From Elusimicrobiota bacterium (GTDB taxonomy: Bacteria; Elusimicrobiota; Elusimicrobia; UBA1565; UBA9628), in the NCBI GenBank assembly GCA_027319565.1, contig DAHVNA010000014.1, positions 1 through 50,370 on the forward strand: 50,370 nucleotides of DNA. Reading direction: 5' to 3'. The translations under genes and the position numbers were made by a program. The notes under the pieces are model-generated. The model searched no databases, was not told the origin of the DNA, and was given only the letters and a program-made list of their open reading frames with translations. Positions 31,717-50,334 of the stretch are shown piece by piece. Position 1 is the stretch's first letter. Every line of letters starts with the position of its first letter.

Positions 31717-31717
31717 T

Positions 31718-32221: not shown

Positions 32222-32240
32222 GCCTTAAAATCTCCTCATC

Positions 32241-32273
32241 TTTCGGCGTCCGCCTTAACGGCGGACGCCGAAA
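32241..32273. other. 14-bp perfect hairpin between atpE and atpF
   Basis: TTTCGGCGTCCGCC-TTAAC-GGCGGACGCCGAAA; no U-tract on the coding strand; lies just before the atpF RBS. Confidence 0.75.
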
Positions 32274-32284
32274 ATATCTCTACC

Positions 32285-32572: not shown

Positions 32573-32633
32573 GAACGCCTCCTCACTAACTTTTCGGCGC
32601 ATCTCAAAGGATCGCCGTTACAACCTCGCTTTC

Positions 32634-33751: not shown

Positions 33752-33950
33752 TTTTTTTACTTGAAGACCGAATAATTCCATAAATACCGACCGCCATTCC
33801 CAAAAAAGTCCCACACACTAAGAACCACGGATAAGAGTTAAATTTCCTATCCGCCCACCAACCCAGCCAAGATAAACCTAAAACCGAAACGACCAACTCC
33901 ACCCCGCCGCTTAAAGCCAAAAACCAAGCGCCGCTTTTTTCTTCTGTCAT
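33741..33950 (-). CDS. AtpZ/AtpI-family (ATPase gene 1) small membrane protein
   Basis: LGWWADRKFNSYPWF....G...G pattern; first gene of the operon. Confidence 0.8.
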   Translation of the reverse strand: MTEEKSGAWFLALSGGVELVVSVLGLSWLGWWADRKFNSYPWFLVCGTFLGMAVGIYGIIRSSSKKNVP

Positions 33951-33966
33951 AAAAAGCGGCGGGGAA

Positions 33967-33996
33967 ATTTTATCACTCTGTGAGCTATTTTATCAA
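33967..33996 (-). promoter_or_regulatory. Putative atp operon promoter
   Basis: TTGATA-18 bp-TAAAAT with extended -10 TGn; contains TGATAAAAT twice, 20 bp apart. Confidence 0.5.
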
Positions 33997-34029
33997 ATGC
34001 TCCCTCGAAACGCAAATAAAGGGAAGCCT

Positions 34030-35742: not shown

Positions 35743-35774
35743 TTGACTCGATACCTAGGTATAGGGTTTATACT
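35743..35774 (+). promoter_or_regulatory. MerR-type promoter/operator
   Basis: TTGACT-20 bp-TATACT with perfect palindrome ATACCTAGGTAT (35751-35762) in the elongated spacer. Confidence 0.88.
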
Positions 35775-35790
35775 ACTTAGAGAGGACAAA

Positions 35791-36231
35791 ATGAAATCAA
35801 ACCTGACCATCGGACAAGCCGCGAAAAAAGCCGGCGTCAATATCCAAACCCTGCGCTATTACGAAGGGCGCGGCCTATTGCCGGCCGAGGCGCGCACGGA
35901 GGCGGGATATCGCCTCTATAGCGAGGAATCGGTTCAAAGACTGCGGTTTATCAAAAACGCCCAAGAGCTGGGATTTCCCCTCTCTGAAATCGCGCGCCTT
36001 CTCAAACTCCGGGTCAAGCGCCCCAATCAGTGCGAGAAGGTCAGAAAAGAGGTCGAAGCCCGCCTAGAAGTCGTCAAAGATAAAATCCTGGGCCTGCGCT
36101 CAATTGAGAAAACCTTGGAAAGTCTCAGGCAAGCCTGCAAGACGAGAAAGATCAGCTCCGATTGCCCAATTTTAGAAAGCCTCGACAACTCAAAAATAAA
36201 AGGAGAAAAACATGGAAAACAAAAACAATGA
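35791..36231 (+). CDS. merR: Hg(II)-responsive MerR regulator
   Basis: LTIGQAAK..GVNIQTLRYYE HTH; three Cys (NQCE, QACK, DCPILESL); ATG at 35791 after GAGGA. Confidence 0.88.
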   Translation: MKSNLTIGQAAKKAGVNIQTLRYYEGRGLLPAEARTEAGYRLYSEESVQRLRFIKNAQELGFPLSEIARLLKLRVKRPNQCEKVRKEVEARLEVVKDKILGLRSIEKTLESLRQACKTRKISSDCPILESLDNSKIKGEKHGKQKQ

Positions 36232-36859
36232 AAAATGGACGGGCGCCGCCGCGCTTTTGTCGGCGGCCCTGGCCTCGGTCTGCTGCATTGGGCCACTCAT
36301 CGCCATCACCCTGGGACTCACCAGCCTTGGCTTTGCGGCCAAACTGGTTCGCTATCGGCCTTACTTTCTGGGGCTAACCGCCACGGCCTTGGCCTTCGGG
36401 TTTTACCGAGCCTACCGCCAACGCCCGGTTGAGTGCGAGGACGGAAGCTGCAAAATGAGTTCCGGAAGCCGGACGATGAAGACGAGTCTGTGGATCGTCG
36501 CCGTTTTCGCCCTCGCCTTGGCGACTTTTCCCAAATGGTCAACCTGTCTGCTGGAGAAATGCGCCTTTGCGGGGAAAGTGAATGCGGCGGCATCCATCCC
36601 CGCCGGCGCCCAAGCCCTCAATCTTAAAATCGCGGGAATGGACTGCGAGGACTGCACCTTAATGATCAAAAAGAACATCGAAAAAATCCACGGGGTTTAT
36701 TTTGCCGACATCAATTTTGACGCGGGAACGGCCCTGGTCAAAACCAACGGAAAAGTGAACGCTCAAGACATTATCAGAGCCGTGGCAAAATCAGGATATA
36801 AGGCCGAAATTTTTTCAGCAAACTTATCTACAAAAGGAGAATCCAATGAAAGAAAATAA
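36212..36859 (+). CDS. merT: MerT-type mercury transporter fused to C-terminal HMA (MerP-like) domain
   Basis: SVCCIGP, YRPYF, CEDGSC; C-terminal GMDCEDC. Confidence 0.88.
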   Translation: MENKNNEKWTGAAALLSAALASVCCIGPLIAITLGLTSLGFAAKLVRYRPYFLGLTATALAFGFYRAYRQRPVECEDGSCKMSSGSRTMKTSLWIVAVFALALATFPKWSTCLLEKCAFAGKVNAAASIPAGAQALNLKIAGMDCEDCTLMIKKNIEKIHGVYFADINFDAGTALVKTNGKVNAQDIIRAVAKSGYKAEIFSANLSTKGESNERK

Positions 36860-38297
36860 CGGAAGCGAAAACGGTCAATTTTGGGACGGCAAAACGGAAT
36901 TTGACCTCGCCGTCATCGGTGGCGGCTCGGGAGCGTTTGCCGCAGCCATCAAAGGCTCGGAACTTGGCGCCAAGGTGGCTATTATTGAGGAAGGCGTCAT
37001 TGGAGGAACCTGCCTTAACCGCGGATGCGTGCCCTCCAAGCATCTCATACGAGCGGCCGAGATTTATCATCTGGCCGAATCAAACCCCTTTCCCGGGTTT
37101 TCGCTCAAGCGCTCTTCTCTTGATTTCGCGAGCCTCATTAAAAAGAAAGATAGTCTTCTCGATTGGGCTCGAAACGCCAAATACTGGGATATTCTCCGCC
37201 ATCATAAAAACATCAGCTTTATCCCGCGGAGGGCGAAGCTCAAATCGCCCAACACAATTGACGCCAGCGGAACCGAAATTCACGCGCGCAAAATCATCGT
37301 CGCGACGGGTTCTTCCGCCTTTATTCCGCCCATTGAAGGCTTAAACAATGTCTCCTATCTCACCAGCACGGAGGCGTTAAATCTTAAAAAACTGCCAAAA
37401 TCCATGATCGTCTTGGGCGCCAACGCGGTGGGGCTGGAACTCGCGCAAATGTTTTCGCGCTTTGGAGTGAACGTCTCCATTCATGAAATCATGGGGCGCG
37501 TGGCTCCCTTGGAAGAGCCGGAAATATCCAAAGCCCTTGAGAAATATTTGAAAGAAGAGGACATCGGCATTTGCACTTGTTCCAAGATAGTCGCGGCAAA
37601 ACAGAAGGGAGAAAAAATCGTCATCATCTCGGAAATGCCAAACGACGCAAAAAAAGAATTTTCTGCCGAGGCTCTGATTGTAGCGACTGGACGGCGGCCC
37701 AATACCCGGGAAATGGGTCTTGAGGCCATTGGAGTGGCCATGGACCCGCGAGGATACATCAAAACCGATGATCTGATGCGAACATCGGTTGACGGCGTCT
37801 TTGCCGCCGGCGATTGCGTCGGGCCCTATCAATTCGTCTATACCGCCGCCTATCAAGGCGCGGTGGCGGCTCAAAACGCTCTTGAAGACTGCTGCGAGCG
37901 AAAGATTAATTACGATGTCGTTCCCTACGCGATCTTCACCGATCCGGAACTCGCCTCGGTGGGTCTTAAAGAAGAACAGGCCAAGGCGCGCGGCCTCAAG
38001 GTCCGAACCAGCGTTCTTGATTTTCACTGGATTCCACGGGCCGAGGTGATGCTCAACGAACGCGGACTCATTAAGATCGTCGCCGAAGAGAAAAGCCTTA
38101 AACTCTTGGGCGTCCATATTCTCGGGGCTCAGGCCGGCGACTTGATTCATGAGGCGGTCATGGCCTTGAAATTCGGCGCCACGGCAAAAGACTTGACTGA
38201 CACGCTGCACGTCTATCCGACTTTATCCGAGGCCCTCAAAATTTGCGCTCAGGGATTCTTTAAAGACGCGACGAAACTTTCCTGCTGCGCGGAATGA
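36846..38297 (+). CDS. merA: Mercuric reductase lacking an N-terminal NmerA domain
   Basis: GGTCLNRGCVPSK, KYWD, FVYTAA, YPTLSE, C-terminal LSCCAE. Confidence 0.93.
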   Translation: MKENNGSENGQFWDGKTEFDLAVIGGGSGAFAAAIKGSELGAKVAIIEEGVIGGTCLNRGCVPSKHLIRAAEIYHLAESNPFPGFSLKRSSLDFASLIKKKDSLLDWARNAKYWDILRHHKNISFIPRRAKLKSPNTIDASGTEIHARKIIVATGSSAFIPPIEGLNNVSYLTSTEALNLKKLPKSMIVLGANAVGLELAQMFSRFGVNVSIHEIMGRVAPLEEPEISKALEKYLKEEDIGICTCSKIVAAKQKGEKIVIISEMPNDAKKEFSAEALIVATGRRPNTREMGLEAIGVAMDPRGYIKTDDLMRTSVDGVFAAGDCVGPYQFVYTAAYQGAVAAQNALEDCCERKINYDVVPYAIFTDPELASVGLKEEQAKARGLKVRTSVLDFHWIPRAEVMLNERGLIKIVAEEKSLKLLGVHILGAQAGDLIHEAVMALKFGATAKDLTDTLHVYPTLSEALKICAQGFFKDATKLSCCAE

Positions 38298-38318
38298 AAA
38301 CGAAAGGAGGAAGGAAAA

Positions 38319-38597
38319 ATGGAAAAAAGAAAGGTTGAGATATTCACGGCGGGATGTTCTGTCTGCGAGGACGCGGTCAAAAAGGTCAACGCCGCTTCCT
38401 GCCCCAACTGCGAGGTCGTGGTCTACGACCTCAACAAGGGCTGCAAGACCGATGAATGCCGCAACAAAGCCGAAGAATACGGCATCACGAGGCTTCCGGC
38501 CATCGTCGTCAACGGCCAGTTGCTTGACTGCTGCCGCCAAGATGCGGTCAAAACAGACGAACTTGAAGCCGCAGGGATCGGCAGGAAGTGTTGCTAA
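38319..38597 (+). CDS. Cys-rich thioredoxin/glutaredoxin-like protein
   Basis: FTAGCSVC, LPAIVVNG; 10 Cys in 92 aa; GGAGG RBS. Confidence 0.8.
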   Translation: MEKRKVEIFTAGCSVCEDAVKKVNAASCPNCEVVVYDLNKGCKTDECRNKAEEYGITRLPAIVVNGQLLDCCRQDAVKTDELEAAGIGRKCC

Positions 38598-38657: not shown

Positions 38658-38686
38658 TGTAACATTTGAGGATCAGAACAGACTTA
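38658..38686 (+). promoter_or_regulatory. Candidate ECF sigma promoter, copy 1
   Basis: TGTAACATTT-N13-GACTTA, same spacing as the copies at 42198 and 47118. Confidence 0.78.
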
Positions 38687-38747
38687 TCTTAAGCTGGACA
38701 TCTTGAGCTTAGCTTAAAATCCTAAAATAAAAAATAAAGGAGGATCA

Positions 38748-39050
38748 ATGGACAAGAAAAAGAACAAAGCGTTGTTAAGCGCCGCGGTCGCGGGGCTGAT
38801 GGGAGCGGCGTTGATGGCGGTTCCGGCGGCGGCAAAAAAAGCGCCGAAGCTGGTTCACTGCTACGGCGTCAACAAATGCAAGGGGCACGCAAGCTGCATG
38901 GGCAAGGGACATATGTGCGCCGGCAAAAACAGCTGCAAGGGGCAGGGGTGGCTCGCCATGCCCGCGAAATCCTGCGAGAACATAGAAGGCGGCTCCCTTA
39001 AACCCGTCAAAAAAATGAGCATGCCGATGAAAAAGATGAGCGGACAATAG
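38748..39050 (+). CDS. Bufferin-type (BufA2-like) secreted Cys-rich RiPP precursor
   Basis: Sec signal peptide; HCYGVNKCKG...CAGKNSCKGQGW...C..GG (6 Cys); directly upstream of DUF692. Confidence 0.85.
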   Translation: MDKKKNKALLSAAVAGLMGAALMAVPAAAKKAPKLVHCYGVNKCKGHASCMGKGHMCAGKNSCKGQGWLAMPAKSCENIEGGSLKPVKKMSMPMKKMSGQ

Positions 39051-39055
39051 ACCTA

Positions 39056-39955
39056 ATGAATCAGGATAGGATCAAAACCAAAGCCCAGGCATTCCGCGAT
39101 AAAAAAATCGTTTGCGGCGTCGGAGTCGGCCTGCGCTCGGTTCATTACGATCATGTCCTGTCCCGACGCCCCGCCGTCCCTTGGTTTGAGGTGATTTCCG
39201 AGAACTATATGGGACTGCGGGGCGATCAAGGAGGAAGGCCGCTGGAAATTTTGGAAGAAGCGCGGCGAAATTATCCCATCGTTCTTCACGGGGTTTCACT
39301 CAACATCGGTTCGGCCGACCCGCTTGATAAAAATTATTTAAACGCCTTAAAACGCCTGGCCGACCGCATCGACTCTCCCCATGTCACCGATCATCTTTGT
39401 TGGACCGGAGTTAGGGGCCAAAACCTCCACGATCTATTGCCCTTGCCGTATACGGCGGAAGGCTTGAATTTAATTTCTTCTCGCGCCGCCCAGATTCAAG
39501 ATATTTTGGGACGGCCCTTCGCCTTGGAAAACCCGTCCACCTATCTGGCGTTTCGCCATTCCCAGATGCCGGAATGGGAGTTTTTAGCCGAGGCCGCTCG
39601 TCAAGCCGGCTGCGGCATTCTTTTAGACATTAACAATGTTTATGTCAGCGCGAAAAACCACGGCTTTGATCCCGTTGAATACCTGAGAAATATTCCCGCC
39701 GACAGGGTCATTCAAATGCATCTGGCTGGTTATTCTCATTGCGGCAATCTTTTGATTGACACCCACGATCATCCGGTGTCGGATCCCGTCTGGGAACTCT
39801 ACGGCGAGGCCGTGCGCCTGTTTGGCGATGTCCCGACATTGATTGAGTGGGACGACAAAATTCCGCCGTTTGGCGTCCTTGAAAAAGAGGCCGCGCGCGC
39901 CGAAAAAATAAGGAGGAAAATTCTTGGCAAGCGAGATTGCGCCGCCCTGGTCTAA
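39056..39955 (+). CDS. DUF692 multinuclear non-heme iron oxidase (MNIO, BufB-like)
   Basis: GVGLR..H, EVISENY, HGVSL, DHLCW, LENPSTY, LLDINNVYV..KNH, HLAG, DTHDH, LIEWD. Confidence 0.93.
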   Translation: MNQDRIKTKAQAFRDKKIVCGVGVGLRSVHYDHVLSRRPAVPWFEVISENYMGLRGDQGGRPLEILEEARRNYPIVLHGVSLNIGSADPLDKNYLNALKRLADRIDSPHVTDHLCWTGVRGQNLHDLLPLPYTAEGLNLISSRAAQIQDILGRPFALENPSTYLAFRHSQMPEWEFLAEAARQAGCGILLDINNVYVSAKNHGFDPVEYLRNIPADRVIQMHLAGYSHCGNLLIDTHDHPVSDPVWELYGEAVRLFGDVPTLIEWDDKIPPFGVLEKEAARAEKIRRKILGKRDCAALV

Positions 39956-40757
39956 ACTACAGGAAAGCCTGCAAAAGATTCTAACCGACTCTGGAGGCGT
40001 CAACAACGCTTTGTCGAATCCATCGGTTCAATTTCTGCCTCATTTTCTCGCTGAAACCTCCGCGGTTTCGGCGCGGGAACGCCTCGGCGTTTATTGCGAC
40101 GCTTATTTCCTGCGCATACTCGAATCATTGGGTTCTGACTTCCCAACGCTTAAAGAGTTCTTAGGCGATAAAAATTTTCGCCATCTGATCGCGGATTATC
40201 TCAAGGACCACCCCTCCCGCTTTAAAAATATTTCCCTTATCGGCGAGCGCTTGCCGAAATTTGTATCCCGGCATCCTCTCAATAGAAAGTTTGGCTTCCT
40301 CGCCGATTTATCCCGATTGGAATGGGAAGTTCTCTCGTGCCTTTATCGCGACAGGCTTTCCCCCTTAAACCTAGAGTCGCTGCGCCAAATTCCGGAAAAA
40401 TCCTGGCCGAAGGCGAGATTTATTCTTGACCCCAGCGTACGATTTATTGAACTCGATTGGGACGTCGATCGTCTGTGGAATGAACGAATGCTGGCGAGAG
40501 CCAAAAAGAGAAGCCTCAAAATTAAAAAAAGCGAGCGTTCTCTTTTGATTGTCCGCGATCATCAATGGGTCCAGGTTCGGGCTCTTGGGCTTGAGGAATC
40601 TACGGCCCTCAAGAGACTCCGCGGCGGCGCTTCTTTGGGAAATCTCTGCGATTTCCTCGAGAATTCCCGCAAGTTCCAGGTCAAGCCCGGCGCTATCCAA
40701 GTCTGGATTCGCGATTGGATTTCCTCGGGAGTTCTAAAGCGGTTAGTTTTTCCATAG
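39924..40757 (+). CDS. DUF2063 MNIO partner protein (BufC-like)
   Basis: RLGVY..AY..R....L..DFP....LG...F......Y...HP, LADL.RLEW. Confidence 0.85.
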   Translation: MASEIAPPWSKLQESLQKILTDSGGVNNALSNPSVQFLPHFLAETSAVSARERLGVYCDAYFLRILESLGSDFPTLKEFLGDKNFRHLIADYLKDHPSRFKNISLIGERLPKFVSRHPLNRKFGFLADLSRLEWEVLSCLYRDRLSPLNLESLRQIPEKSWPKARFILDPSVRFIELDWDVDRLWNERMLARAKKRSLKIKKSERSLLIVRDHQWVQVRALGLEESTALKRLRGGASLGNLCDFLENSRKFQVKPGAIQVWIRDWISSGVLKRLVFP

Positions 40758-40857
40758 TCTCAACCCCTGCGCATGGACTTCACCGCCAATTTCCCGCCCC
40801 AAGGCGCCAGAAACTATGGATGGATCAAGCGGAAAATTTTGCCGCGAAATGAGTAGT

Positions 40858-41361
40858 TCACACAACCGACGCTTTCACGGCTTCCAGGAATTTTTCGTCG
40901 CTGACGGCGGAAAGGTGATGTTTGAAGGTAGCCCCGCCTTTTTTGTCCAAGATCAACACGTTGTACATGGGGCAGGCGCCGCCCGGATGAGCCAAGCCCA
41001 AGGTTTTTCCCAGCCAGTCCGCAGGGTCTGAGAGCAAAGGAAAATCAAAACGATGATCCCTCAAAACCCGCTCCGGAGCGCTTTGGTCCGCGCCCAAGGT
41101 TGAAATCGCCAACACCTCGAGATGTTCGCGGTTCGATTGATAAATATTCTGCAAAAAACCGATCCTTTCCTGACAAGTAGAACACAGATTGGTAAACCAT
41201 AAGACGACGGATTTCTGAAGAAAATAAGAGGACAAGGTGTAAGGCCGCCCTTTTAAGTCGCGCAAGGTAAAGTCTGGAATGGCCTCTCCAAGTTTGACGC
41301 CTTGATAGGGATGAAACAAAAACCTCGCGCGAATAAAAGTTTTCCAAAAAAGTTTTTTCAT
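40858..41361 (-). CDS. Redoxin/AhpC-TSA (TlpA-like) protein
   Basis: PDFTL.DL.G, CSTC, FPLLSD, ILDK.G; third Cys in GACP. Confidence 0.8.
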   Translation of the reverse strand: MKKLFWKTFIRARFLFHPYQGVKLGEAIPDFTLRDLKGRPYTLSSYFLQKSVVLWFTNLCSTCQERIGFLQNIYQSNREHLEVLAISTLGADQSAPERVLRDHRFDFPLLSDPADWLGKTLGLAHPGGACPMYNVLILDKKGGATFKHHLSAVSDEKFLEAVKASVV

Positions 41362-41609
41362 TTCGGTTTGAGATGTTCCAGAATACGACGCTTGGCGGCT
41401 TTAACTACGCGCGGGTCAAGCTGGGGCCGAGCTATTTCTTCTACCGTTTTAGAAATCATCTCTAATTGCCGCGAAAAGCGCCGGCAATGCTCGCATAACA
41501 TCAAATGCAGGCGCAAAAGCCCGCGCTGAAGTAAGGGCGCATTGAAAAGTTCTCCGACAAGAACTTTCTCGGACACCTCCCGACAAGACGGCATCAGGCG
41601 TTTAATCAT
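41358..41609 (-). CDS. Soluble zinc-binding anti-sigma factor (zf-HC2/ZAS)
   Basis: SCRE...LRLHLMLCEHCRRF (C...HxxxCxxC); no TM; overlaps the sigma gene. Confidence 0.88.
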   Translation of the reverse strand: MIKRLMPSCREVSEKVLVGELFNAPLLQRGLLRLHLMLCEHCRRFSRQLEMISKTVEEIARPQLDPRVVKAAKRRILEHLKPK

Positions 41610-42192
41610 GTTTCCCGCTTTCCCATTTCTTTTCCAGGCACTCCCGCAGCTTGATGCGGGCTCTGTAGAGAAGCACCCGTAAATTGGTATAGGAAACGCC
41701 CAAAATGTTACAGATATCCTCGGAGGACTCTCCCTCCGATTCCCGAAGGAAAAACGCCGTTTTTTGGCTTAAGGTCAAGCCCTCGGCACATTGCGCGATC
41801 AATTCCTTGATCTCTCCGGTCAAGACGCTTTCCTCTGGGCCCAAGGGAGGGCGAGACCACAGGCCGCTCTCGTTAAAACGCTTTTCAAAGTCATCTTGAA
41901 TTTTGTCAAGGCTTTCCTCGCGATAGCTTTTTCGGCGGAAATCCGCAGCCTTATTATAAAGGATTCCGACAAGATAGGTCTTAATTTGGGATCGCCCTTC
42001 AAAGCGATCAAGCGCACTTAAGAAGGCCGCGAAGGTTTCCTGTGCGAGTTCCTCGGCGTCGGCTTGGGAAAACCCCATGGCAAAACTCACGGCCAAAAGC
42101 GTCTGAGTATGGGAGTTGACCAATTCTGCCATCGCGCCGTCCCGGCCCTCCTTGAGAGCCCGGATATCGTCTTTAGAGATATCGGTTGGCAT
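41602..42192 (-). CDS. ECF sigma factor (TIGR02943-like)
   Basis: AEELAQETF, FEGRS..KTYL.GIL.NK, F..SG.W, IC.ILG....N..VLLYRAR..LRECLE..W. Confidence 0.9.
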   Translation of the reverse strand: MPTDISKDDIRALKEGRDGAMAELVNSHTQTLLAVSFAMGFSQADAEELAQETFAAFLSALDRFEGRSQIKTYLVGILYNKAADFRRKSYREESLDKIQDDFEKRFNESGLWSRPPLGPEESVLTGEIKELIAQCAEGLTLSQKTAFFLRESEGESSEDICNILGVSYTNLRVLLYRARIKLRECLEKKWESGKHD

Positions 42193-42197
42193 AGGGT

Positions 42198-42226
42198 TGT
42201 AACATTTTACAAATTTGTCCGACTTA
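42198..42226 (+). promoter_or_regulatory. Candidate ECF sigma promoter, copy 2
   Basis: TGTAACATTT-N13-GACTTA in the 45-bp divergent gap between the sigma and PiT genes. Confidence 0.78.
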
Positions 42227-42237
42227 CTTGTGTGACC

Positions 42238-43224
42238 ATGGACTTGACCACGCTTCTAGGAATAACTGGCGCGGCAGCTCTCGCTTTCGTCAACGGCGCC
42301 AACGATATATCAAAGTCCATCGCCACCTTGGTCGGAAGCGGTGAGTCAAGTTACAAGAGGGCCGTGATCCTTGTCGCCCTGAGTACTGCCGCGGGAGCGA
42401 TCCTCGCTTCCGCCTGGGCCGTCAAGATGACTCTCCTTTTCACCAGAGGAATGCTGTCTCCGCATATTAAAATCAACGAAATTTTCGCCTTAGCGGTTCT
42501 CGCCGGAGCCATTCTCTGGATTCTGATGGCGACGAAAATCGGACTTCCAGTCTCTACCACTCACGCCATCGTAGGCAGCGTCATTTTGACTGGCGTCTAC
42601 GCCTTTGGCTTTCGCAACGTCTTCTGGTCAAGTCTAACGCGAAATGTGGTCCTGCCGCTCCTTGTTTCCCCCATCGCCGCTTTTGTCGCGGCCCGTTTGA
42701 TCTTTCAGGGATTGTTTTGGCTCTGCCGCAAAAAATATTGTCTCAACTGTCACTGGGCGCATTGGATGAGCGCGATGTCAAGCGGCTTCGCGCGTGGGCT
42801 CAACGATACTCCAAAAATCGCCGCCTTCGGGTTTATCTTCTACTATATCCTCGACCCTCAAACTCATATCGCGCCAAAGTGGTTTTTTCTGATTCTAGCC
42901 ACCGCAATGGCCTCGGGAGCAATCGCCATGGGTCTACAGGTGACGAAAACACTCGCCGAGAAGATTACACAAATGGACCATCTGGAAGGTTTTGCCGCCA
43001 ATCTCGCGACCTCCATGTTGGTCATCATAGGTGCAATCGCAGGTTGGCCTATGTCGACAACTCATGTCGCCAGCGGCGGCATCATGGGAATCGGCCTCCG
43101 CAACGGAGAAAAGACCATCGATTGGAAAACGGTGGGCGAGATATTAGCGGCATGGGTCATTACATTGCCAGTCTCCGGGATGATGGGCATGGCGGCTTAT
43201 TGGGCTTTTAAAAAATTAAAATAA
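42238..43224 (+). CDS. PiT-family (PHO4) oxyanion transporter
   Basis: NGAND, PVSTTHA, GLND..K, PMSTTH; real start ATG 42238 (the track's upstream extension overlaps the sigma gene). Confidence 0.88.
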   Translation: MDLTTLLGITGAAALAFVNGANDISKSIATLVGSGESSYKRAVILVALSTAAGAILASAWAVKMTLLFTRGMLSPHIKINEIFALAVLAGAILWILMATKIGLPVSTTHAIVGSVILTGVYAFGFRNVFWSSLTRNVVLPLLVSPIAAFVAARLIFQGLFWLCRKKYCLNCHWAHWMSAMSSGFARGLNDTPKIAAFGFIFYYILDPQTHIAPKWFFLILATAMASGAIAMGLQVTKTLAEKITQMDHLEGFAANLATSMLVIIGAIAGWPMSTTHVASGGIMGIGLRNGEKTIDWKTVGEILAAWVITLPVSGMMGMAAYWAFKKLK

Positions 43225-43243
43225 GGAATACAGGAGAAAATAC

Positions 43244-45769
43244 ATGGAAACACAACTCATTGAAATCAAAGCCGACACGATTTTTTACAAGCCAGAGCTT
43301 CACTGCTGGCAAAAAGACGGGCTTTATTTCGCCCTTGACCCTGATTCTCCAAACTGGGTCTCGACCGATGAGCGAGGGAAAAATATTTTGGATCTTATCG
43401 ATGGGAAAAATCCAGTCTCTGAAATTTTAAGGCTTTACTCCCAAAAAACCGGCTTGGACTATGGAAAAACCTGGCGGGACATCCACTCTTTTTTGCGCGA
43501 AGCCGAAAGAAAAGAAATTATTTCCCCAAAGCCCTTCAATCGCCCCCCTTATGAAGGACGCGCACGACATTTAAAGATGGGAAAATTGAAAGAGTTTTGG
43601 ATACATCTTCTTCAAACCTGCAATCTGTCCTGTTCTCATTGCCTGGTTTCCTCCGACCCCCACGGCGAGAAAGGAGAGAGCAAAGACTTTTATTTAAAAG
43701 CGATTGACGAAGCTTTCGATCTCGGAGTCAGGCGCTTCTATTTCACGGGAGGAGAACCCTTTATTTATGATGGGATATTCGATCTCATCAGCCACATCGT
43801 TGAAGCAAAGAAGGCGGAACTCATTGTCCTAACCAACGCGACCCTGCTTCAGGGAGAAAGACTGCGGAAAATCGAGAAATTTGACCCTAATCTTCTTAAA
43901 TTCCAGGTCAGCCTGGATGGGACGACTTCGGAAATCAACGACCCCATTCGCGGCGCGGGCGTATTCAAAAAAGCCTCGAAGGGACTTCTCAACTTAAGCC
44001 GCCTGGGATTTGAAGCCTCTTTAACTGCAGTTGTCACCAAATCCAATATCGAAGACCTTAAAAATTTACCAAAAATCGCCAAGGAGCTGGGGGCAAAATC
44101 CGTCCATCTCATGTGGCTCCACAAACGCGGCCGCATTCTCAACTCGGACGAAAACGGAAATCCGCCATCGAATACGGAACTCCTCGATCTCACACGACAC
44201 GTAAGAAGCGCGGCCAAAGAATACGGGATTGTCTTTGACAACTTTGAGTCTATTTTAAGCCGCATCAACGGCAAGGCGGGGGTTAAATACGATTTGGGAA
44301 ATCTCTGCTGGGAAAGTTTGTGCCTCTATCGTGACGGCGGCGTCTACCCATCGGCCGCGACAGCGGGAATTTCCACCCTGGAGTTAGGAAACGCGAAATC
44401 ATCCCGGCTTGCCGCACTGTGGGAAAAAAGTTCCGTGGCCCAATTATTCCGCGAAACAAGCGTCATTCAAAAAAGATCTCTTTTAAATCATCCTTTCCGC
44501 TTTTTAAGCGGCGGCGGAGACATGGAGCACTCATACTTTTTCAGTTCCAATGGAACGGAAGGCTCGATTTTAGCGGATGACCCTTATCATGAGCTCTACG
44601 TTGATATGATTAAAGACGCGATAGCGGAGCTTGCCCTGCGCGCCCAAAAATCCCAGAACATGAAGTCGGGATTTAATCCCCCCACCATTTATCACGCAAT
44701 GGGAGACGGCGGAATTTCCTGCAGCGAGGACGCCCAAGATTGGCTCATCGGACATGAAGTAAAACCAACGCGATTTCTCCACACCAATTGCGTTCTTTCC
44801 TTCGATGTGGAAAAACCCTACCGCATAGTCCAAAAATTTTATGGACAAGCGGCCACTGAACCGCAAAAAGAGCTCTGTTGCCCGGTCAAATACGACGAAG
44901 CCGAGGTCGGCCATATTCCCAAAGATGTCTTGGATCGCTTCTACGGCTGCGGTTCTCCTATCTCTGAGGCGCAAATCACCCCGGGAGAAACGATCCTCGA
45001 CCTCGGTTCAGGAGCCGGCATAGACTGCTTTATCGCCGCTAAAAAAACCGGCCCCAAGGGACGAGTGATTGGAGTCGACATGACCAGCGAAATGCTGGCC
45101 GTCGCCCGCAGATGCCAAAAAGACGTCGCCTCAGCCTTGGGTTATGATGTCGTCGATTTCAAGGAAGGATTTCTTGAAAAAATTCCCACAAAAGATAAAA
45201 GCGTGGATATTGTGACATCCAACTGCGTCATCAATCTCTCGCCGGATAAAGCAAAGGTCTTTTCGGAAATTTGGCGCATCTTGAAAGACAACGGGCGGAT
45301 GGTCGTCGCCGATATCGTATCTGAAAATCCCGTGCCCCTCAACCTCCAAGCGCACAAAGACCTATGGGGAGAATGCATCTCGGGTTCTCTGTCCGAGGCG
45401 GAGTTTCTAGCGGGACTTGAACGAGCGGGATTTTATGGAATTCGCGTCCTAAAAAAAACCTTTTGGAAGGAAGTGGAAGGCTATCCCTTCTATTCGATTA
45501 CCGTCAGAGGTTTTAAATACGAAAAGAAATCCGCCTGTTCTTTTATCGGCCAAAAGGCTGTCTATTGGGGCCCGTATAAGGCGGTCATCGACGAAGAAGG
45601 GCATCTTTTCCCTCGCGGAGAATTAGTGGAGGTCTGCACCGACACGACATCCAAGCTCGCGACGCCGCCTTATGCCGGAGATTTTAGCGTCATCAAATCT
45701 AGCGAATCCCTTGAAAAACCGTCCGTTCCCGAAGGCGCTTGTTGCAGCCCGGAAAAAGCTTGCTGCTAA
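43244..45769 (+). CDS. Fusion: PqqD/RRE-like + radical SAM + degenerate SPASM-like + ArsM-like methyltransferase
   Basis: CNLSCSHC, FTGGEP, QVSLDG; LDLGSGAG.D; ArsM Cys motifs CCP, YGCG, SNCVINL, WGEC; terminal CC..CC. Confidence 0.82.
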   Translation: METQLIEIKADTIFYKPELHCWQKDGLYFALDPDSPNWVSTDERGKNILDLIDGKNPVSEILRLYSQKTGLDYGKTWRDIHSFLREAERKEIISPKPFNRPPYEGRARHLKMGKLKEFWIHLLQTCNLSCSHCLVSSDPHGEKGESKDFYLKAIDEAFDLGVRRFYFTGGEPFIYDGIFDLISHIVEAKKAELIVLTNATLLQGERLRKIEKFDPNLLKFQVSLDGTTSEINDPIRGAGVFKKASKGLLNLSRLGFEASLTAVVTKSNIEDLKNLPKIAKELGAKSVHLMWLHKRGRILNSDENGNPPSNTELLDLTRHVRSAAKEYGIVFDNFESILSRINGKAGVKYDLGNLCWESLCLYRDGGVYPSAATAGISTLELGNAKSSRLAALWEKSSVAQLFRETSVIQKRSLLNHPFRFLSGGGDMEHSYFFSSNGTEGSILADDPYHELYVDMIKDAIAELALRAQKSQNMKSGFNPPTIYHAMGDGGISCSEDAQDWLIGHEVKPTRFLHTNCVLSFDVEKPYRIVQKFYGQAATEPQKELCCPVKYDEAEVGHIPKDVLDRFYGCGSPISEAQITPGETILDLGSGAGIDCFIAAKKTGPKGRVIGVDMTSEMLAVARRCQKDVASALGYDVVDFKEGFLEKIPTKDKSVDIVTSNCVINLSPDKAKVFSEIWRILKDNGRMVVADIVSENPVPLNLQAHKDLWGECISGSLSEAEFLAGLERAGFYGIRVLKKTFWKEVEGYPFYSITVRGFKYEKKSACSFIGQKAVYWGPYKAVIDEEGHLFPRGELVEVCTDTTSKLATPPYAGDFSVIKSSESLEKPSVPEGACCSPEKACC

Positions 45770-45778
45770 TGCCCCAAC

Positions 45779-46462
45779 ATGAAATTTTCCATCGTCATTC
45801 CGACCTTCAACGAAGAAAAGTCCATTGCAAAGACTCTTTCTCTATTGAGGAGTCAGGCCCAGGAAAGCGAATTAGAAATAATCGTAGTCGATGCGCATAG
45901 TTCTGACAGAACGGTGGAGCTGGCTGAGAAACTCGCGGATCAAACGATTTTCTCGCCTCCGGGCCGCGCCATTCAAATGCACAAAGGAGCCCTCGCCGCT
46001 TCGGGAGAATTACTCGTTTTTCTCCATGCCGACACGCGCCTGCCGGCGTCTTGGGTCCACGCCGCCTTAAAGGCTTTCGCTGTTCTTCCAAGGCCTGCGG
46101 CCTTGGCGTTTCGACTTCGCTTTGACAGAGACGAGTTTGTTTACCGCTTTATCGCCCAGGCCTCTTATTGGAGAAGTCTATTGACCGGAGTCCCCCTCGG
46201 CGATCAAGCCCTCATCATTTCAAAGGAATTGTATTTTCGGAGCGGAGGGTTTCCGCCAGTCCCCATCTTCGAGGAATATTTTTTGATAAAAAATCTCAAG
46301 AGCCTGGGAAGAGTTCAAATTCTGGAAGATTCGGTCACGACATCCTCGCGGAGATACGAGAAAAATGGCCCGCTTTCCAACGCGTTGAAAAATTCCTGGA
46401 TCACTTTTTTGTTTTATCTTGGGATTTCGCCTTCCGTTTTGGCGCGGATGTATAAGCCCTAA
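45779..46462 (+). CDS. GT2 glycosyltransferase (TIGR04283-like, arsenosugar-cluster associated)
   Basis: SIVIPTFNEE, GRA.QM..GA, FLHADT, GDQAL, GGFP, TSSRRY. Confidence 0.85.
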   Translation: MKFSIVIPTFNEEKSIAKTLSLLRSQAQESELEIIVVDAHSSDRTVELAEKLADQTIFSPPGRAIQMHKGALAASGELLVFLHADTRLPASWVHAALKAFAVLPRPAALAFRLRFDRDEFVYRFIAQASYWRSLLTGVPLGDQALIISKELYFRSGGFPPVPIFEEYFLIKNLKSLGRVQILEDSVTTSSRRYEKNGPLSNALKNSWITFLFYLGISPSVLARMYKP

Positions 46463-47122
46463 ATGAACGCCCTCATTGTTTTCGTTAAGGATCCAATCCC
46501 GGGCAAGGTCAAGACGCGGCTTTGCCCTCCGTTCTCATATGATCAGGCCGCGAGCCTTTACAAATCTTTCGCCGAAGACGTCCTCGAATCGGCTCTCCAA
46601 GTGAGAAATGCGAACATTTTCGCCGCTTACGCCGGCGAAAAATCTCCGCCCAGTTTATTAGAGAAGCGCCCAAAAATTAGCTCGTTTAGACAGGAGGGCC
46701 CCGATCTCGGATTCAAACTCATTAACGCCTTTAAAACCGCGTTTGCCGAAAAAAACTCAAAGGCTGTCATTATCGGATCGGACGCCCCGCAGATCTCCCC
46801 GCGAATTGCCGAAGAGGCCTTTGAGGCGCTTGAGATTGCCGACATGGTTTTAGGGCCAGCCGAGGACGGCGGATATTATCTTATAGCGCTCAAAAGAATC
46901 ATCCCTGAACTGTTCTTTGAAATTCCCTGGTCCACAGAAAAAGTTTTGAGCGAAACTCTGTCTCGCGCCCAAAACCTCGGCCTCAAAATCAAACTCTTGC
47001 CGACGCTCTTTGACATAGACAATTATGACAATCTCCAAAAACTAATCAAGACTCTTGAGTCTCTGCCGAAAACCAGCTGCCCCGCCACCCGAAAAGCCCT
47101 GGCGGAATTTTCCCACCTGTAA
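46463..47122 (+). CDS. DUF2064/TIGR04282-like transferase
   Basis: FVK.P.PGKVKTRL, Q.G.DLG, IIGSD.P, LGPAEDGGYYLI, IPWST, DID. Confidence 0.87.
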   Translation: MNALIVFVKDPIPGKVKTRLCPPFSYDQAASLYKSFAEDVLESALQVRNANIFAAYAGEKSPPSLLEKRPKISSFRQEGPDLGFKLINAFKTAFAEKNSKAVIIGSDAPQISPRIAEEAFEALEIADMVLGPAEDGGYYLIALKRIIPELFFEIPWSTEKVLSETLSRAQNLGLKIKLLPTLFDIDNYDNLQKLIKTLESLPKTSCPATRKALAEFSHL

Positions 47123-47146
47123 CATTTCGCCGTTTAAGGCGACTCA
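47118..47146 (+). promoter_or_regulatory. Candidate ECF sigma promoter, copy 3
   Basis: TGTAACATTT-N13-GACTCA, overlapping the upstream TAA stop. Confidence 0.75.
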
Positions 47147-47190
47147 TTAAAAGAGAAATAAACTCATGAAAATCAAAGGAGGAGAAAATT

Positions 47191-47322
47191 ATGGCTCTTA
47201 TGTGTCAGATGGGATCGTGCAAGGCAAAACAGGGGATGTGCGGCCACGAGAAAATGATGCTTCTGGCGGTCATGCTCATCTCAGCGGGAGCGGCGGGGCA
47301 TTGGCTATTGCATTTATTTTAG
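47191..47322 (+). CDS. Unlisted 43-aa Cys/Met/His-rich peptide with hydrophobic C-terminus
   Basis: AAGGAGGAG RBS; MALMCQMGSCKAKQGMCGHEKMMLLAVMLISAGAAGHWLLHLF*. Confidence 0.65.
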   Translation: MALMCQMGSCKAKQGMCGHEKMMLLAVMLISAGAAGHWLLHLF

Positions 47323-48122
47323 GCCTTGGTCTTGCGGCAAAACCAGCGCGGGCCGGAGTTGAAAGACTCTCCGGCCCGACGGCTTTGTGGAATCAAGTCC
47401 TTATGTCCTATGTCCACAACGCCCGGGTGGATTACGCGGATTTACAAGCCCATCCTGAAATATTGAATCAATACATAAAATCCTTAGCTATCAAGCCGCG
47501 TGAAAAACACGCCCAAGAAAATCTCGATACAAAAATCGCATTCTTAATCAACGCTTATAACGCCTTGACGATGAAGACGATTATCGATCATTATCCGATC
47601 CAATGGTCCTGGGCAGCGTCTCTTATTTATCCCAAAAATAGCATTCGCCAAATTCCGGGAGTTTGGGATCGCTTGAAATTTAACGTCATGGGCCAAGAAA
47701 TGACCTTACAGGAAATCGAAAATACCCTCCGGGGCCTTGGCGACCCGCGCATTCACATGGCGATTGTCTGCGCTTCCAAAGGCTGCCCGCCGTTGAGATC
47801 CGAGCCCTATCTCGGCAAAAAACTCAGCGCTCAACTTGACGATCAAACGCGCCGATTTTTGTCGAATCCAAAAAAATTCGCGATTGATAAAAAAGCTGGC
47901 GTCGTTTATCTTTCCCCCATTTTTAAATGGTTTGGAGGAGATTTTGCGTCCAAATTCGAGCCCGGAATTGGTTTTGAAGGGCAAAACGCGAATGTGCGCG
48001 CGGCGTTAAATTTCATCAGCGGCTATTTAAGCGTTGACGACGCTCTTTATCTGCGCGGCGGAGCCTACCAAGTTGAGTACCTCGCCTATGACTGGTCGCT
48101 CAATGAATGGAAAAAGCAATGA
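47301..48122 (+). CDS. Exported DUF547-domain protein
   Basis: VDY, AFLINAYNA, DPRIH.AIVCASKGCPPL, LSPIFKWF..DF, YDWSLN. Likely TTG start at 47301 giving a signal peptide; the track start is 47166. Confidence 0.85.
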   Translation: MAIAFILGLGLAAKPARAGVERLSGPTALWNQVLMSYVHNARVDYADLQAHPEILNQYIKSLAIKPREKHAQENLDTKIAFLINAYNALTMKTIIDHYPIQWSWAASLIYPKNSIRQIPGVWDRLKFNVMGQEMTLQEIENTLRGLGDPRIHMAIVCASKGCPPLRSEPYLGKKLSAQLDDQTRRFLSNPKKFAIDKKAGVVYLSPIFKWFGGDFASKFEPGIGFEGQNANVRAALNFISGYLSVDDALYLRGGAYQVEYLAYDWSLNEWKKQ

Positions 48123-48817
48123 AACATCTTAAAATTATTCTGACCGCCCTTTTGACCGCGGCTCTCATCATTTTCTCCCGGCATTTTAACGCGTCGGGAC
48201 TTTTAAAAGAGTCTCTGGAATCCATAAAAAATCTCGGTCCTTGGGCGCCGCTGATCTTTATCGCCCTTTATGTCGCGACCACGGTCCTGCTTATTCCCGG
48301 TTCCATTTTAACCTTGGGATCCGGAGTTCTCTTCGGCGTTTTTTGGGGAACCTTTTACGTCTCAATTGCCTCCACCATCGGCGCGATGGCGGCTTTCGCC
48401 CTTGGGAGAGGATTCGCCAGGGATTGGATTTCCCGAAAAATAAAATCAAATTCCTCTTTTAACGCCGTCTCTCAAGCGGCCGCCCGCGAAGGCTGGAAAA
48501 TCGTCGTTTTGACGCGCCTCTCGCCGATTTTCCCGTTTAACCTCCTCAATTACGCCTTCGGCCTTACTGACGTCTCTTTCCGCGACTATGTCTTCGCTTC
48601 CTGGATTGGGATGCTCCCGGGAACAATCCTTTATGTTTACATTGGTTCTTTAGCCGGAGATTTGGCGCGAGTTGGGATTTCCTCTGGGCATTCCCGCCCC
48701 CCGGTTGAATGGGCTTTTTATTCCGTCGGTCTTCTCGCGACCATCGCCGTTTCCATTTACATCGGCCGCATCGCAAAGGCCGCAATCGCCCAAAAAACCT
48801 CAAAGGAGGCGTTATGA
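48119..48817 (+). CDS. TVP38/TMEM64 (VTT, DedA superfamily) membrane protein
   Basis: PGSILTLG.G..FG, RLSPIFPFNLLNYAFGLT, GMLPGT; ATGA overlap with the DUF547 stop. Confidence 0.9.
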   Translation: MKHLKIILTALLTAALIIFSRHFNASGLLKESLESIKNLGPWAPLIFIALYVATTVLLIPGSILTLGSGVLFGVFWGTFYVSIASTIGAMAAFALGRGFARDWISRKIKSNSSFNAVSQAAAREGWKIVVLTRLSPIFPFNLLNYAFGLTDVSFRDYVFASWIGMLPGTILYVYIGSLAGDLARVGISSGHSRPPVEWAFYSVGLLATIAVSIYIGRIAKAAIAQKTSKEAL

Positions 48818-50334
48818 CCTTGGAAACTCATCTTGCTCCGGAAGACGAACACAACCAGTTTCTGCTTTCAAATGTCCACCCAAAGGATTGGAAAAATCCG
48901 CGGGCGGCGGCGAAATACGACTTGGCGGTTATCGGGGGCGGAACCGCAGGACTAGTCAGCGCGGCGGGAGCGGCGGGTCTGGGAGCCAAAGTCGCGCTAA
49001 TTGAAAGACATTTTCTGGGCGGAGATTGCTTAAATGTCGGTTGCGTGCCGTCGAAAGCCCTCATTCGAGCCTCTCGCGCGGCCTTTGACGCTCGCGCCGC
49101 CAGAGATTTTGGAGTCAACGTCCCCGAGGGCGTGGCGGCCAATTTTCCAAGAATCATGGAGAGAATGCGAAAACTTCGCTCGAGCCTTAGCCCGCATGAC
49201 TCGGCCGCGAGGTTTAAAGAACTGGGAGTCGACGTGTTTTTGGGAGACGGAAAATTCACCTCGCCAGATGCGCTCGAGGTCGATGGGCAGCGATTATTTT
49301 TTTCAAAAGCGGTGATCGCCTCGGGGGCGCGGGCCGCCAAACTTCCAATCCCGGGCTTGTGGGATGCGGGAGCCTTAAGCAATGAAGAGGTTTTTAACCT
49401 GGCGGAGCTTCCCAAGCGGCTTCTGGTCATCGGCGCCGGCCCCATCGGAGTTGAAATGGCGCAAGCATTCGCGCGTTTTGGTTCTCAAGTCACTCTTTTT
49501 GAAACCATGCATGGGATTTTGCCTAGGGAAGACAAAGACGCTTCCGCGATCGTCCAAAAGTCATTGGAAAAAGACGGGGGCAATTTCTTTTGTTGCGTTG
49601 AAATTGAAGGCGTTGAACGCAGAAACAATGAAACCCATGTCCACTTTAAATCTAAGCATGAAACCTGGGGCGAAAAAATCTTTGACGCGGTCTTAGTCGG
49701 AGTCGGCCGCGCCCCCAACACCGAAGGCCTGGGGCTTGAAAAGGCTCAGGTTCAATTCGATAAAAACGGCGTCAAGGTTAATGATTTTCTTCAAACCTCC
49801 AACCCAAAAATTTTCGCGGCGGGAGACATCTGTTCTGTTTACAAATTCACCCATGCCGCCGATGCCATGGCCCGCATCGTCATTCAAAACGCGCTTTTTC
49901 TGGGGCGCAAGCGCGCAAGCTCGTTGATCATTCCATGGAGCGTCTACTCCGATCCCGAAATCGCCCATGTCGGGCTTTATGAAGCGGAGGCCGTCAATCG
50001 AAAAATTTCCGTTGAAACCTTCATCCAAAAATTCGAGGATGTCGACCGCGCCGTTCTCGATGGAGAATCGGAAGGCTTTGTTAAAATTCACGTTCGCAAG
50101 GGAACCGATAAAATACTCGGCGCTACGATTGTTTCAAGGCACGCCGGGGAAATGATTGGAGAAATCACGTTAGCCATGACAAATAATCTCGGGCTTAAGG
50201 CCATCGCCCAAACAATTCATCCCTATCCCACGCAAACCGAAAGCGTCAAGAAAACGGCCGACGCCTACAACAGAAGTCGCCTGACGCCCTTCGTCAAATC
50301 CGTTTTAGCCAAATGGCTGAGCTGGGGGAGATAA
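48814..50334 (+). CDS. FAD-dependent pyridine nucleotide-disulfide oxidoreductase (MerA/Lpd-like, no C-terminal CC)
   Basis: GGDCLNVGCVPSK, GAGPIG, FTHAA, IHPYPT; start 48814 after AAGGAGG. Confidence 0.88.
   Translation: MTLETHLAPEDEHNQFLLSNVHPKDWKNPRAAAKYDLAVIGGGTAGLVSAAGAAGLGAKVALIERHFLGGDCLNVGCVPSKALIRASRAAFDARAARDFGVNVPEGVAANFPRIMERMRKLRSSLSPHDSAARFKELGVDVFLGDGKFTSPDALEVDGQRLFFSKAVIASGARAAKLPIPGLWDAGALSNEEVFNLAELPKRLLVIGAGPIGVEMAQAFARFGSQVTLFETMHGILPREDKDASAIVQKSLEKDGGNFFCCVEIEGVERRNNETHVHFKSKHETWGEKIFDAVLVGVGRAPNTEGLGLEKAQVQFDKNGVKVNDFLQTSNPKIFAAGDICSVYKFTHAADAMARIVIQNALFLGRKRASSLIIPWSVYSDPEIAHVGLYEAEAVNRKISVETFIQKFEDVDRAVLDGESEGFVKIHVRKGTDKILGATIVSRHAGEMIGEITLAMTNNLGLKAIAQTIHPYPTQTESVKKTADAYNRSRLTPFVKSVLAKWLSWGR

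Follow-up and report, generated by a model that had tools for sequence, protein, structure and literature searches.

What controls the genes for a bufferin and for a putative organoarsenic pathway when both lie beside the same sigma factor gene? The question is raised by a contig of an Elusimicrobiota bacterium (DAHVNA010000014.1, assembly GCA_027319565.1; the whole stretch of 50,370 nucleotides is called the window here), in which genes for an extracytoplasmic function (ECF) sigma factor and a zinc-binding anti-sigma (ZAS) protein stand between a bufferin operon and an operon of arsenosugar type. A preliminary description had noted three identically spaced copies of a bipartite motif, each on the plus strand ahead of a gene start, and had proposed that they are read by the local sigma/ZAS pair. 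From comparison across genomes, the three sites are quite probably promoters read by the ECF293-like sigma factor encoded next to them, and this factor would co-drive the bufferin operon, a PiT–radical SAM/ArsM–glycosyltransferase operon and a peptide–DUF547–VTT–oxidoreductase operon.

The motif, TGTAACATTT-N13-GACTYA, has three matches in the window, all on the plus strand and at the positions first described (Table 1), and none in 100 dinucleotide shuffles of the window. Its genome-wide frequency, proposed at the outset as a check, speaks for it as well: in the source genome (G000; 2,030,671 bases in 111 contigs, the window being contig C17) the full pattern occurs at the three sites and once on a 731-base contig, C103, and nowhere else, and the looser TGTAAC-N17-GACT finds the same four copies only. 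A scoring matrix trained on 61 sites lying outside sigma genes, all from other genomes, gives its four highest scores in the genome, 21.4–25.0 bits, to the three sites and the C103 copy, against a reversed-genome maximum of 19.2. Among those 61 sites the base 5' of ACT is C in 35, G in 15, T in 10 and A in one, and the ATTT that follows TGTAAC is a mere preference; the common core across species is thus TGTAAC-N18-ACT(C/T/A)A. The distance from the end of the -10 element to the start codon is 61 nt for BufA2 at site 1, 11 nt for the PiT permease at site 2, where there is no Shine-Dalgarno sequence and a near-leaderless transcript is predicted, and 44 nt for a 43-residue peptide at site 3. The sigma ATG, on the opposite strand, is 5 nt from the start of site 2, whilst the TGTAA of site 3 includes the stop codon of the preceding TIGR04282 gene.

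Site 2 lies within an imperfect palindrome, TTGTAA-N4-TTACAA, as would suit repressor operators or relics of local duplication. That the three copies are either of these is scarcely credible, however, since sites 1 and 3 show a bipartite motif without a palindrome, the variable spacer is of fixed length, the motif faces the next gene in a single orientation, and it is present on unlinked contigs. An inverted repeat, TAAGCT-N10-AGCTTA (38690–38712), directly 3' of site 1 could be an operator or a leader hairpin; its fold is not significant. The C103 copy is near-identical to the site-1 region and consists of a second trx/site-1 copy with an insertion, ending within this inverted repeat; it is a strain variant or a duplication. 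No 5' leader gave a significant fold (z about -1 to -1.6), and scans for sigma-70 promoters and terminators gave chance levels only.

The sigma factor itself carries the marks of group ECF293. The gene at +1 is an 83-residue reading frame, overlapping the sigma stop codon, for a soluble zinc-finger anti-sigma factor; the three region 4 cysteines lie in QCAE, ICNI and ECLE; and sigma2 ends at residue 91 and sigma4 starts at 130, giving an apparently extended linker. The protein is 33% identical to a sigma factor from a P. aeruginosa plasmid with FabH at -1 and zf-HC2 at +1, a context listed for ECF293s2 (PMC7826278). The ECF293 entry of that source gives a soluble zinc-finger anti-sigma factor, three sigma4 cysteines and promoter motifs which are not conserved between subgroups, and in the part available it names no arsenic genes. 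Membership of ECF16 (SigF/NrsF) was considered and rejected, as the anti-sigma factor is a soluble ZAS rather than a six-helix DUF1109 protein and the -10 element reads ACTYA rather than CGAA.

The orthologous loci, the second check proposed at the outset, bear out the reading of the motif by this sigma/ZAS pair. In a sample of 61 genomes, the source and 60 relatives, the sigma factor (detected at E<=1e-25) is present in 26. TGTAAC-N18-ACTYA occurs in 25 of these 26 genomes as against five of the 35 without the sigma factor, with 69 matches in the former and five in the latter, whilst the reversed control gives 15 and 17. Eleven of the 69 matches are internal to sigma genes; with these excluded, 24 of the 26 genomes keep a site. 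Three of the five matches in sigma-negative genomes stand before msrA or msrAB. In 16 of 34 scorable sigma copies the start codon has a strict site next to it on the opposite strand, three further copies having been dropped because the contig end was too close. Taken together, the comparative evidence indicates that the motif is a real, conserved, ECF293-like class of predicted promoter.

Another sigma factor of the genome, for instance one of the ECF16/SigF type, might read such promoters and leave the local one a bystander. Promoters of a DUF692 operon read by RpoE7 of S. meliloti also start with TGTAAC (PMC6180224), buf1 and buf2 of Caulobacter are under SigF (PMC11626156), and a first look at the source genome gave seven sigma candidates. 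Control by another sigma factor is nevertheless very improbable: the RpoE7 promoters described carry CGAA and not ACTYA (PMC6180224), whereas the present motif tracks this sigma factor across genomes, abuts its start codon in nearly half of the scorable copies and is embedded in its own gene.

Several points weigh against control by the local sigma factor, or qualify it. The pattern was refined after the sigma neighbourhoods of some of the same genomes had been inspected, and the relatives are not independent, so that Fisher tests of the co-occurrence overstate it. Two of the genomes seen later run counter to the pattern: G186 has one uninformative site against six control matches, even though its PiT–radical SAM/ArsM genes are divergent from the sigma gene, and G124 has no site. 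No detectable sigma factor is present in five of 14 relatives with the radical SAM/ArsM fusion, nor in three of 11 genomes with BufB over its cut-off. The msrAB genes of the source genome have no site, and N. meningitidis sigmaE, of group ECF293, was not induced by oxidants in the work available (PMC2893595). Two other later-seen genomes agree with the pattern: G284 has six sites against none in the control, including sites before PiT and a standalone ArsM gene, and G265 has one, beside the sigma gene and before msrAB. The first pattern used in the comparison, TGTAAC-N17-GACT, had been rejected, its -10 element being too narrow and its matches no better than the control in many genomes.

G020 is the sole sigma-positive genome of the 61 without the motif. 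Its sigma factor, like those of G124 and G186, has glycine at the position of Arg172, in the region 4 helix of the source protein. Single cases pair this residue with the -35 base, TGTAAC or TGTAAG: a divergent TGTAAG in G023b, an internal TGT AAG in G020, and an Acinetobacter plasmid described below. This apparent covariation is a lead only, because TGTMAG-N18-ACTHA in five genomes with Gly-type sigma factors gave six matches against eight in the control, which is chance.

Table 1. Features of the window, with strand and the scores or remarks that go with them
Feature	Positions	Strand	Score or remark
merR, merT-merP fusion, merA, small thioredoxin-like gene	35743..38597	+	separately controlled mer context
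Site 1, predicted ECF promoter of bufA2-bufB-bufC	38658..38686	+	23.7 bits, matrix from other genomes
BufA2-type bufferin precursor, 100 aa, six Cys	38748..39050	+	NF050166 74 bits, cut-off 60
BufB, MNIO (DUF692) maturase	39056..39955	+	NF050167 361 bits, cut-off 310
BufC, DUF2063 partner	39924..40757	+	PF09836 over cut-off
AhpC/TSA-family thioredoxin-fold protein, third gene of sigma operon	40858..41361	-	PF00578 over cut-off
Soluble ZAS anti-sigma factor, C9-X25-H35-X3-C39-X2-C42	41358..41609	-	NF052368 42.8 bits, under cut-off 50
ECF sigma factor, ECF293-like, 196 aa, three Cys in region 4	41602..42192	-	best TIGR02943 110 bits, cut-off 162 not reached
Internal site in sigma4 codons C161-N162...T169-N170, TGTAAC-N18-ACCAA, one mismatch	41684..41712	-	predicted anti-sigma promoter
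Site 2, predicted ECF promoter divergent from and abutting sigma start	42198..42226	+	
PiT/PHO4-family anion permease	42238..43224	+	PF01384
841-aa fusion: PqqD-like N-terminus, radical SAM (C126/C130/C133), cysteine-poor SPASM-like region, ArsM domain (C545/C546, C569, C661, C711)	43244..45769	+	
TIGR04283 'arsenosugar biosynthesis' glycosyltransferase	45779..46462	+	233 bits, cut-off 182
TIGR04282 (DUF2064) 'arsenosugar biosynthesis' transferase	46463..47122	+	192 bits, cut-off 134
Site 3, predicted ECF promoter	47118..47146	+	25.0 bits, highest in genome
DUF547 protein	47166..48122	+	PF04784
43-aa peptide, three Cys, His/Met N-terminus, hydrophobic C-terminus	47191..47322	+	strong Shine-Dalgarno sequence
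VTT/TVP38 membrane protein	48107..48817	+	PF09335
FAD-dependent pyridine-nucleotide disulfide oxidoreductase	48814..50334	+	NF004991 779 bits, cut-off 620

The promoter-like copy inside the sigma gene offers a second line of evidence. In the relatives the sigma4 codons spell the same promoter on the strand of the sigma gene, about 55–75 nt before the anti-sigma start. The codon at the cysteine position is TGT in 27 of 34 sigma copies, TGC in five and CGT in two. TGT is thus used for 27 of 32 cysteines here as against 10 of 71 elsewhere in the same genes, and ACT for 19 of 30 threonines as against 19 of 216; local codon use would lead one to expect 6.6 and 3.2 rather than 27 and 19. The preference persists in genes with a GC3 near 0.9, and in the two copies where CGT (Arg) replaces the cysteine codon, and also in G265, GTAAC is kept nonetheless. 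TGTAAC-N17-GTCTCA likewise stands at the 3' end of the sigma gene of a Sinorhizobium relative, 42 nt ahead of its anti-sigma gene. Across the family it is fairly likely, on this codon evidence, that the sigma factor reads a promoter within its own gene which makes extra anti-sigma factor. For the window the same claim falls somewhat short of an even chance: its internal site, which precedes the anti-sigma ATG by 74 nt, has the fifth-highest score of the genome, 15.7 bits, equalled or exceeded by four scores in the reversed control, and may be weak or dead on account of this score and of the ACC at the threonine codon. There is a published precedent in E. coli, where the rseA P3 promoter lies inside rpoE and is likewise read by the sigma factor to transcribe its anti-sigma gene (PMC8595263). 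From that account, P3 differs in standing about 230 nt before rseA rather than within the region 4 helix codons, and E. coli sigmaE also activates its own gene.

Which known systems, then, does this one resemble? The closest is Neisseria sigmaE (NMB2144) with MseR (NMB2145), of ECF293 (former ECF13), which also has a soluble ZAS at +1; the C4/H30/C34/C37 arrangement of NMB2145 has the same Cys/His spacing as the window anti-sigma factor. Its promoter consensus is -35 GTMAGBWTT, a spacer of 12 or 13, and -10 CGTCTAAH, with the start six nt on (PMC2893595). Beside this, the window sites read GTAACATTT-N12-xGACTYA, with the same geometry but with AAC for MAG in the -35 element and ACTYA for TCTAA in the -10 element. 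Both regulons include a small set of genes, which in Neisseria consists of the sigma operon, containing DoxX, and msrAB (PMC2893595, PMC3240639). The present system differs from the published accounts of Neisseria in that the sigma gene lies outside the bufferin operon and is preceded by no strict self-promoter, in the ArsM/arsenosugar-type operons of the regulon and in the predicted self-read promoter inside sigma4. The genes beside that of DoxX in the Neisseria sigmaE operon are presumably those for DUF692 and DUF2063 proteins. H. influenzae RpoE2/HrsE resembles the window pair in its small ZAS, its control of neighbouring genes and msrAB and its very weak self-activation, and differs in that induction by HOCl and H2O2 has been shown there and in that neither a promoter consensus nor arsenic genes feature in the portion of the report available (PMC7907618). 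Caulobacter SigF/NrsF and S. meliloti RpoE7 (ECF16) provide ECF control of BufA/BufB/BufC, the Buf2 type included, with a -35 element of TGTAAC type, but use a six-helix membrane anti-sigma factor and a CGAA -10 element. Sigma genes have been reported in Buf1 and not in Buf2 clusters (PMC12452194, as far as its text was available), a pattern from which the window departs, its Buf2 cluster adjoining the ECF/ZAS pair.

The preliminary description had held the link between bufferin and arsenic genes to be undescribed. This stands for one half only. Control by ECF293 factors has been published for DUF692 operons and for msrAB, and the bufferin half has precedents in the Neisseria sigmaE operon and Caulobacter SigF; in a search of the open-licence literature no paper linked an ECF sigma factor with control of ArsM, ArsS or arsenosugar genes, whilst ECF classification subgroup tables may list the motif. 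The new parts are the arsenic link, the substitute radical SAM enzyme and the embedded anti-sigma promoter.

What the motif heads in relatives was called partly by eye from translations. The commonest target is msrA or msrAB, in 10 genomes. Other sites precede PiT, the fusion itself, standalone ArsM-like genes (G052, G057) and genes for TIGR04283, VTT, DUF547 and BufA2; further targets are peroxidase-related AhpD-like genes, YceI, DUF1223, DUF3179, patatin, rhodanese and a short peptide, and a few sites precede nothing recognisable. Fourteen of the 61 genomes encode the fusion, nine of them sigma-positive. In six of these nine (G000, G005, G011, G016, G049, G054) the fusion operon has a strict site, and in the other three (G023, G046, G050) a variant with one or two mismatches. 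Among the sigma-negative genomes, no site was found at the fusion operons of G013 and G037, those of G019 and G060 are truncated by contig ends, and G027 has site variants within a disrupted operon. In that genome (94% complete, no sigma factor found) a merR fragment splits PiT from the fusion (L189, contig C17), leaving motif variants behind.

BufB scores over its cut-off in 11 of the 61 genomes, with strict sites in G000, G005, G031 and G039 (the last via a YceI gene), variants in G023 and G054 and a weak variant in G050. No site was found in G058, where the contig ends, nor within about 1.1 kb in sigma-negative G008, G012 and G025. In G014 a BufA2 gene at the edge of a contig is preceded by a site. 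Operons of both kinds, bufferin and arsenic-type, are accompanied by a site in genera g1, g10, g3 and g27, which belong to two families, and the two kinds of site are on separate contigs in G014, G023 and G054. The promoter class is likely to control a bufferin jointly with a cluster that contains ArsM, as part of a broader regulon of thiol stress. In G008 an ArsM-like gene directly precedes BufA2-B-C (L199, C4:174911-178699) with neither sigma factor nor motif found in the genome, so adjacency of ArsM and bufferin genes is possible without this regulator.

The nature of the inducing signal follows less directly. That msrAB is the main target points to a regulon of thiol/methionine-oxidation or soft-metal stress which is not specific to arsenic, and on balance the signal would probably be a general thiol or oxidant stress. 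As(III) binds vicinal thiols, and the pair could instead be a dedicated sensor of arsenite or soft metals; in the source genome the whole regulon falls within a metal island next to mer genes, and msrAB is without a site. Such a sensor is unlikely, however, given the place of msrA/msrAB among the targets in relatives, the absence of the motif from a separate ArsR-ArsC/Acr3 arsenic operon on contig C50, and the response of the H. influenzae relative to HOCl and H2O2 (PMC7907618).

In the bufferin operon BufA2, an MNIO-type BufB and a DUF2063 partner occur together without DoxX, which is the composition of a Bufferin 2 cluster; Caulobacter buf2 is likewise without DoxX in the part of the report available (PMC11626156). 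The labels first given to BufA2, BufB and the TIGR04283 and TIGR04282 proteins hold, all four exceeding their NCBIfam cut-offs.

The arsenic output turns on the fusion. Of 7997 candidates scored against it, 430 are homologues at E<=1e-60, the named ones from Elusimicrobia, Nitrospirae, Nitrospinae and Deltaproteobacteria, and the structure model of the fusion is confident (pLDDT 89.6, pTM 0.89). The C-terminal part finds its best sequence and fold matches in solved ArsM/AS3MT structures and scores 234 bits against NF008823, for which the cut-off of 263 applies to a whole protein. Four cysteine positions (C545/546, C569, C661, C711), which we take to be the catalytic ones, are invariant in 91 sequences. 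The organoarsenic radical SAM pathway initially proposed therefore stands as regards ArsM, whose fold and four cysteines are intact; its radical SAM enzyme is not ArsS. In the N-terminal part CxxxCxxC is invariant. Identity with ArsS (TIGR04167) was rejected at 56.9 bits against a cut-off of 300, and no ArsS was found in the source genome. The remaining genes are those of an arsenosugar cluster: ArsM, TIGR04282, TIGR04283 and the usual partners are present, and the partners of the fusion (PiT, TIGR04282/3, DUF547, VTT and FAD oxidoreductase) are those of canonical ArsS with ArsM. Fusion and ArsS are nearly exclusive, in 14 and one of 61 genomes. Because the partner genes match canonical arsS operons, the fused radical SAM enzyme can be read as an ArsS substitute, for which the chances are about even; since it fails the ArsS model, the organoarsenic product is deduced from gene context.

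The competing reading accepts the regulon but not an arsenosugar enzyme: the PqqD-like/radical SAM half would modify a peptide (the 43-residue one, the bufferin or its own cysteine-rich tail), and ArsM would only detoxify As(III) or handle other thiol-reactive substrates. Beyond the failure of the ArsS model, it draws on a weak PqqD match (residues 29-93, 21.5 bits against 23.4) and on the maturase-like fold of the N-terminal half, with SkfB, SuiB, the sactipeptide maturase 5WGG, anSME, TigE and ChlB as its nearest matches. This reading is somewhat unlikely all the same. The SPASM-like region has lost most cluster cysteines, no peptide was seen to track the fusion across genomes, and the 43-residue peptide is present in only five close genomes as against the 430 fusion homologues, whilst the fusion keeps the partner genes of ArsS with ArsM and rarely coexists with ArsS. 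Compared with the ArsM–ArsS cluster (TIGR04167, TIGR04282, TIGR04283), reportedly studied in Synechocystis, the window agrees in ArsM with its cysteines, in both transferases and in DUF547, VTT, FAD oxidoreductase and PiT, and differs in having a PqqD-like radical SAM enzyme fused to ArsM in place of ArsS and in predicted control by an ECF sigma factor rather than ArsR. The chemistry of ArsS is described in part in bioRxiv 2024.02.01.577332. In genus g10 (L038:3914-7305, L039:8764-12139, L040) the arsenosugar-type cluster opens with an unannotated 365-residue exported protein and has a third kind of radical SAM enzyme, neither ArsS nor fusion.

The small peptide of the site-3 operon matched no family, Pfam included; its atlas score was below 0.9, and one homologue came up. 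Among the genomes compared, homologues occur in G001, G002, G005 and G021, with the motif at most 90 nt away in three of the four. Peptides of 40–43 residues (window 47191-47322; L041, L042, L011) share M-C-x-M-G-x-C-K...M-C-x-H-E and a hydrophobic tail and usually stand under this promoter; they are candidate membrane-anchored binders of metal or arsenite. The true start of the DUF547 protein is probably later, near 47297, judging from a signal-peptide-like stretch. The merR promoter is of MerR type (TTGACT-N20-TATACT with a palindrome, 35743-35774) and was seen before merR in 10 of 10 loci. GTAAC stands 8–9 nt before it in G049, G027 and G011, and in the window it is overlapped by a degenerate TATAAC-N17-GACTCG. 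That merR has an ECF site in those three genomes is no more than a possibility, because the MerR-type operator supplies ACTTA in all 10 loci. On its left the island borders on genes for F0F1 ATP synthase and for a GTPase resembling peptide chain release factor 3 (29664-35637, by eye). The same island, at about 99% identity, is found in G005 (C22; L028, L029), with a short BufC-like fragment just past the FAD oxidoreductase.

How far does the system extend beyond the phylum? The closest relatives by sigma protein are labelled Elusimicrobia, and a contig scan with this single sigma factor returned four close Elusimicrobia loci and one weak archaeal match only; evidence of breadth therefore comes from metagenomes and plasmids. 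Of 570 metagenome loci that encode the fusion, the best 80 were examined; the partner genes are found there repeatedly, and in four of the 80 BufA2-B-C are neighbours of the fusion gene. A strict site within 1.6 kb upstream was found at one locus, 59 of the 80 having more than 300 nt upstream. TGTAA(C/G)-N18-ACTHA over the whole loci gave six sites in only four of the 80, all on the operon strand, so that most of these loci are without the motif. None of 44 hand-picked reading frames near these loci matched the ArsR family, a selection rather than a full screen. At L133 (6217-7080) a different ECF sigma factor (24% identical) and a zf-HC2 gene directly precede a transferase–fusion operon, with BufA2-B-C downstream; the same logic is possibly served there by another sigma group. 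Two of six arsS plasmid loci, from Acinetobacter and B. thailandensis, carry a related ECF/ZAS pair. Next to the Acinetobacter pair is a canonical arsS operon in which the partner genes are the same; TGTAAG-N18-GACTAA stands 28 nt upstream of arsS and TGTAAG-N17-GTCTAA 32 nt upstream of arsM. Set against this, only this one of the six loci has the motif, and in its AT-rich sequence a relaxed pattern was not enriched (seven matches as against 11 reversed). At a Cupriavidus locus BufB-BufC adjoin PiT-ArsM-ArsS, and the motif is absent.

A mechanism can be proposed in which thiol-reactive stress (an oxidant, a soft metal or As(III)) would attack the ZAS cysteines and free the sigma factor. The holoenzyme would very probably bind TGTAAC as -35 and (C/G/T)ACTYA as -10 element, with transcription starting about 6 nt downstream. 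One product, by homology to the bufferins of PMC11626156, is likely to be an exported thiooxazole copper chelator. The other, with an even chance, would arise by methylation of As(III), radical adenosylation by the fused enzyme in place of ArsS and glycosyl transfer to an arsenosugar-like compound. The response would be damped rather than amplified if the internal sigma4 promoter adds anti-sigma factor, which has the same standing here as above, fairly likely for the family and somewhat less than even for the window copy. That the divergent site 2 also crowds the sigma factor's own promoter is doubtful. A bolder combination is unlikely as a whole: the arsenosugar-type cluster would serve thiol-stress defence and not merely supplement arsenic detoxification, co-induced with MsrAB and the bufferin, its product protecting the envelope or redox state; the fusion would make C–As bonds within a single polypeptide where ArsS is otherwise used, the sigma4-codon promoter would be pure negative feedback, and Arg172/Gly would shift with the -35 element.

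What arsenosugar-type clusters do for bacteria, and how they are regulated, is poorly understood. A defined promoter, one sigma factor and a small anti-sigma factor make it directly testable whether such a cluster responds to arsenic or to thiol, oxidant or soft-metal stress. The comparison supplies a promoter consensus for an ECF293-like subgroup, extended to Elusimicrobiota, and the widespread fusion, with its 430 homologues, is a candidate ArsS substitute, uncharacterised so far. Finally, the promoter embedded in sigma4 is a clear overlap of protein and promoter constraint, and could explain the weak self-activation seen in this group.

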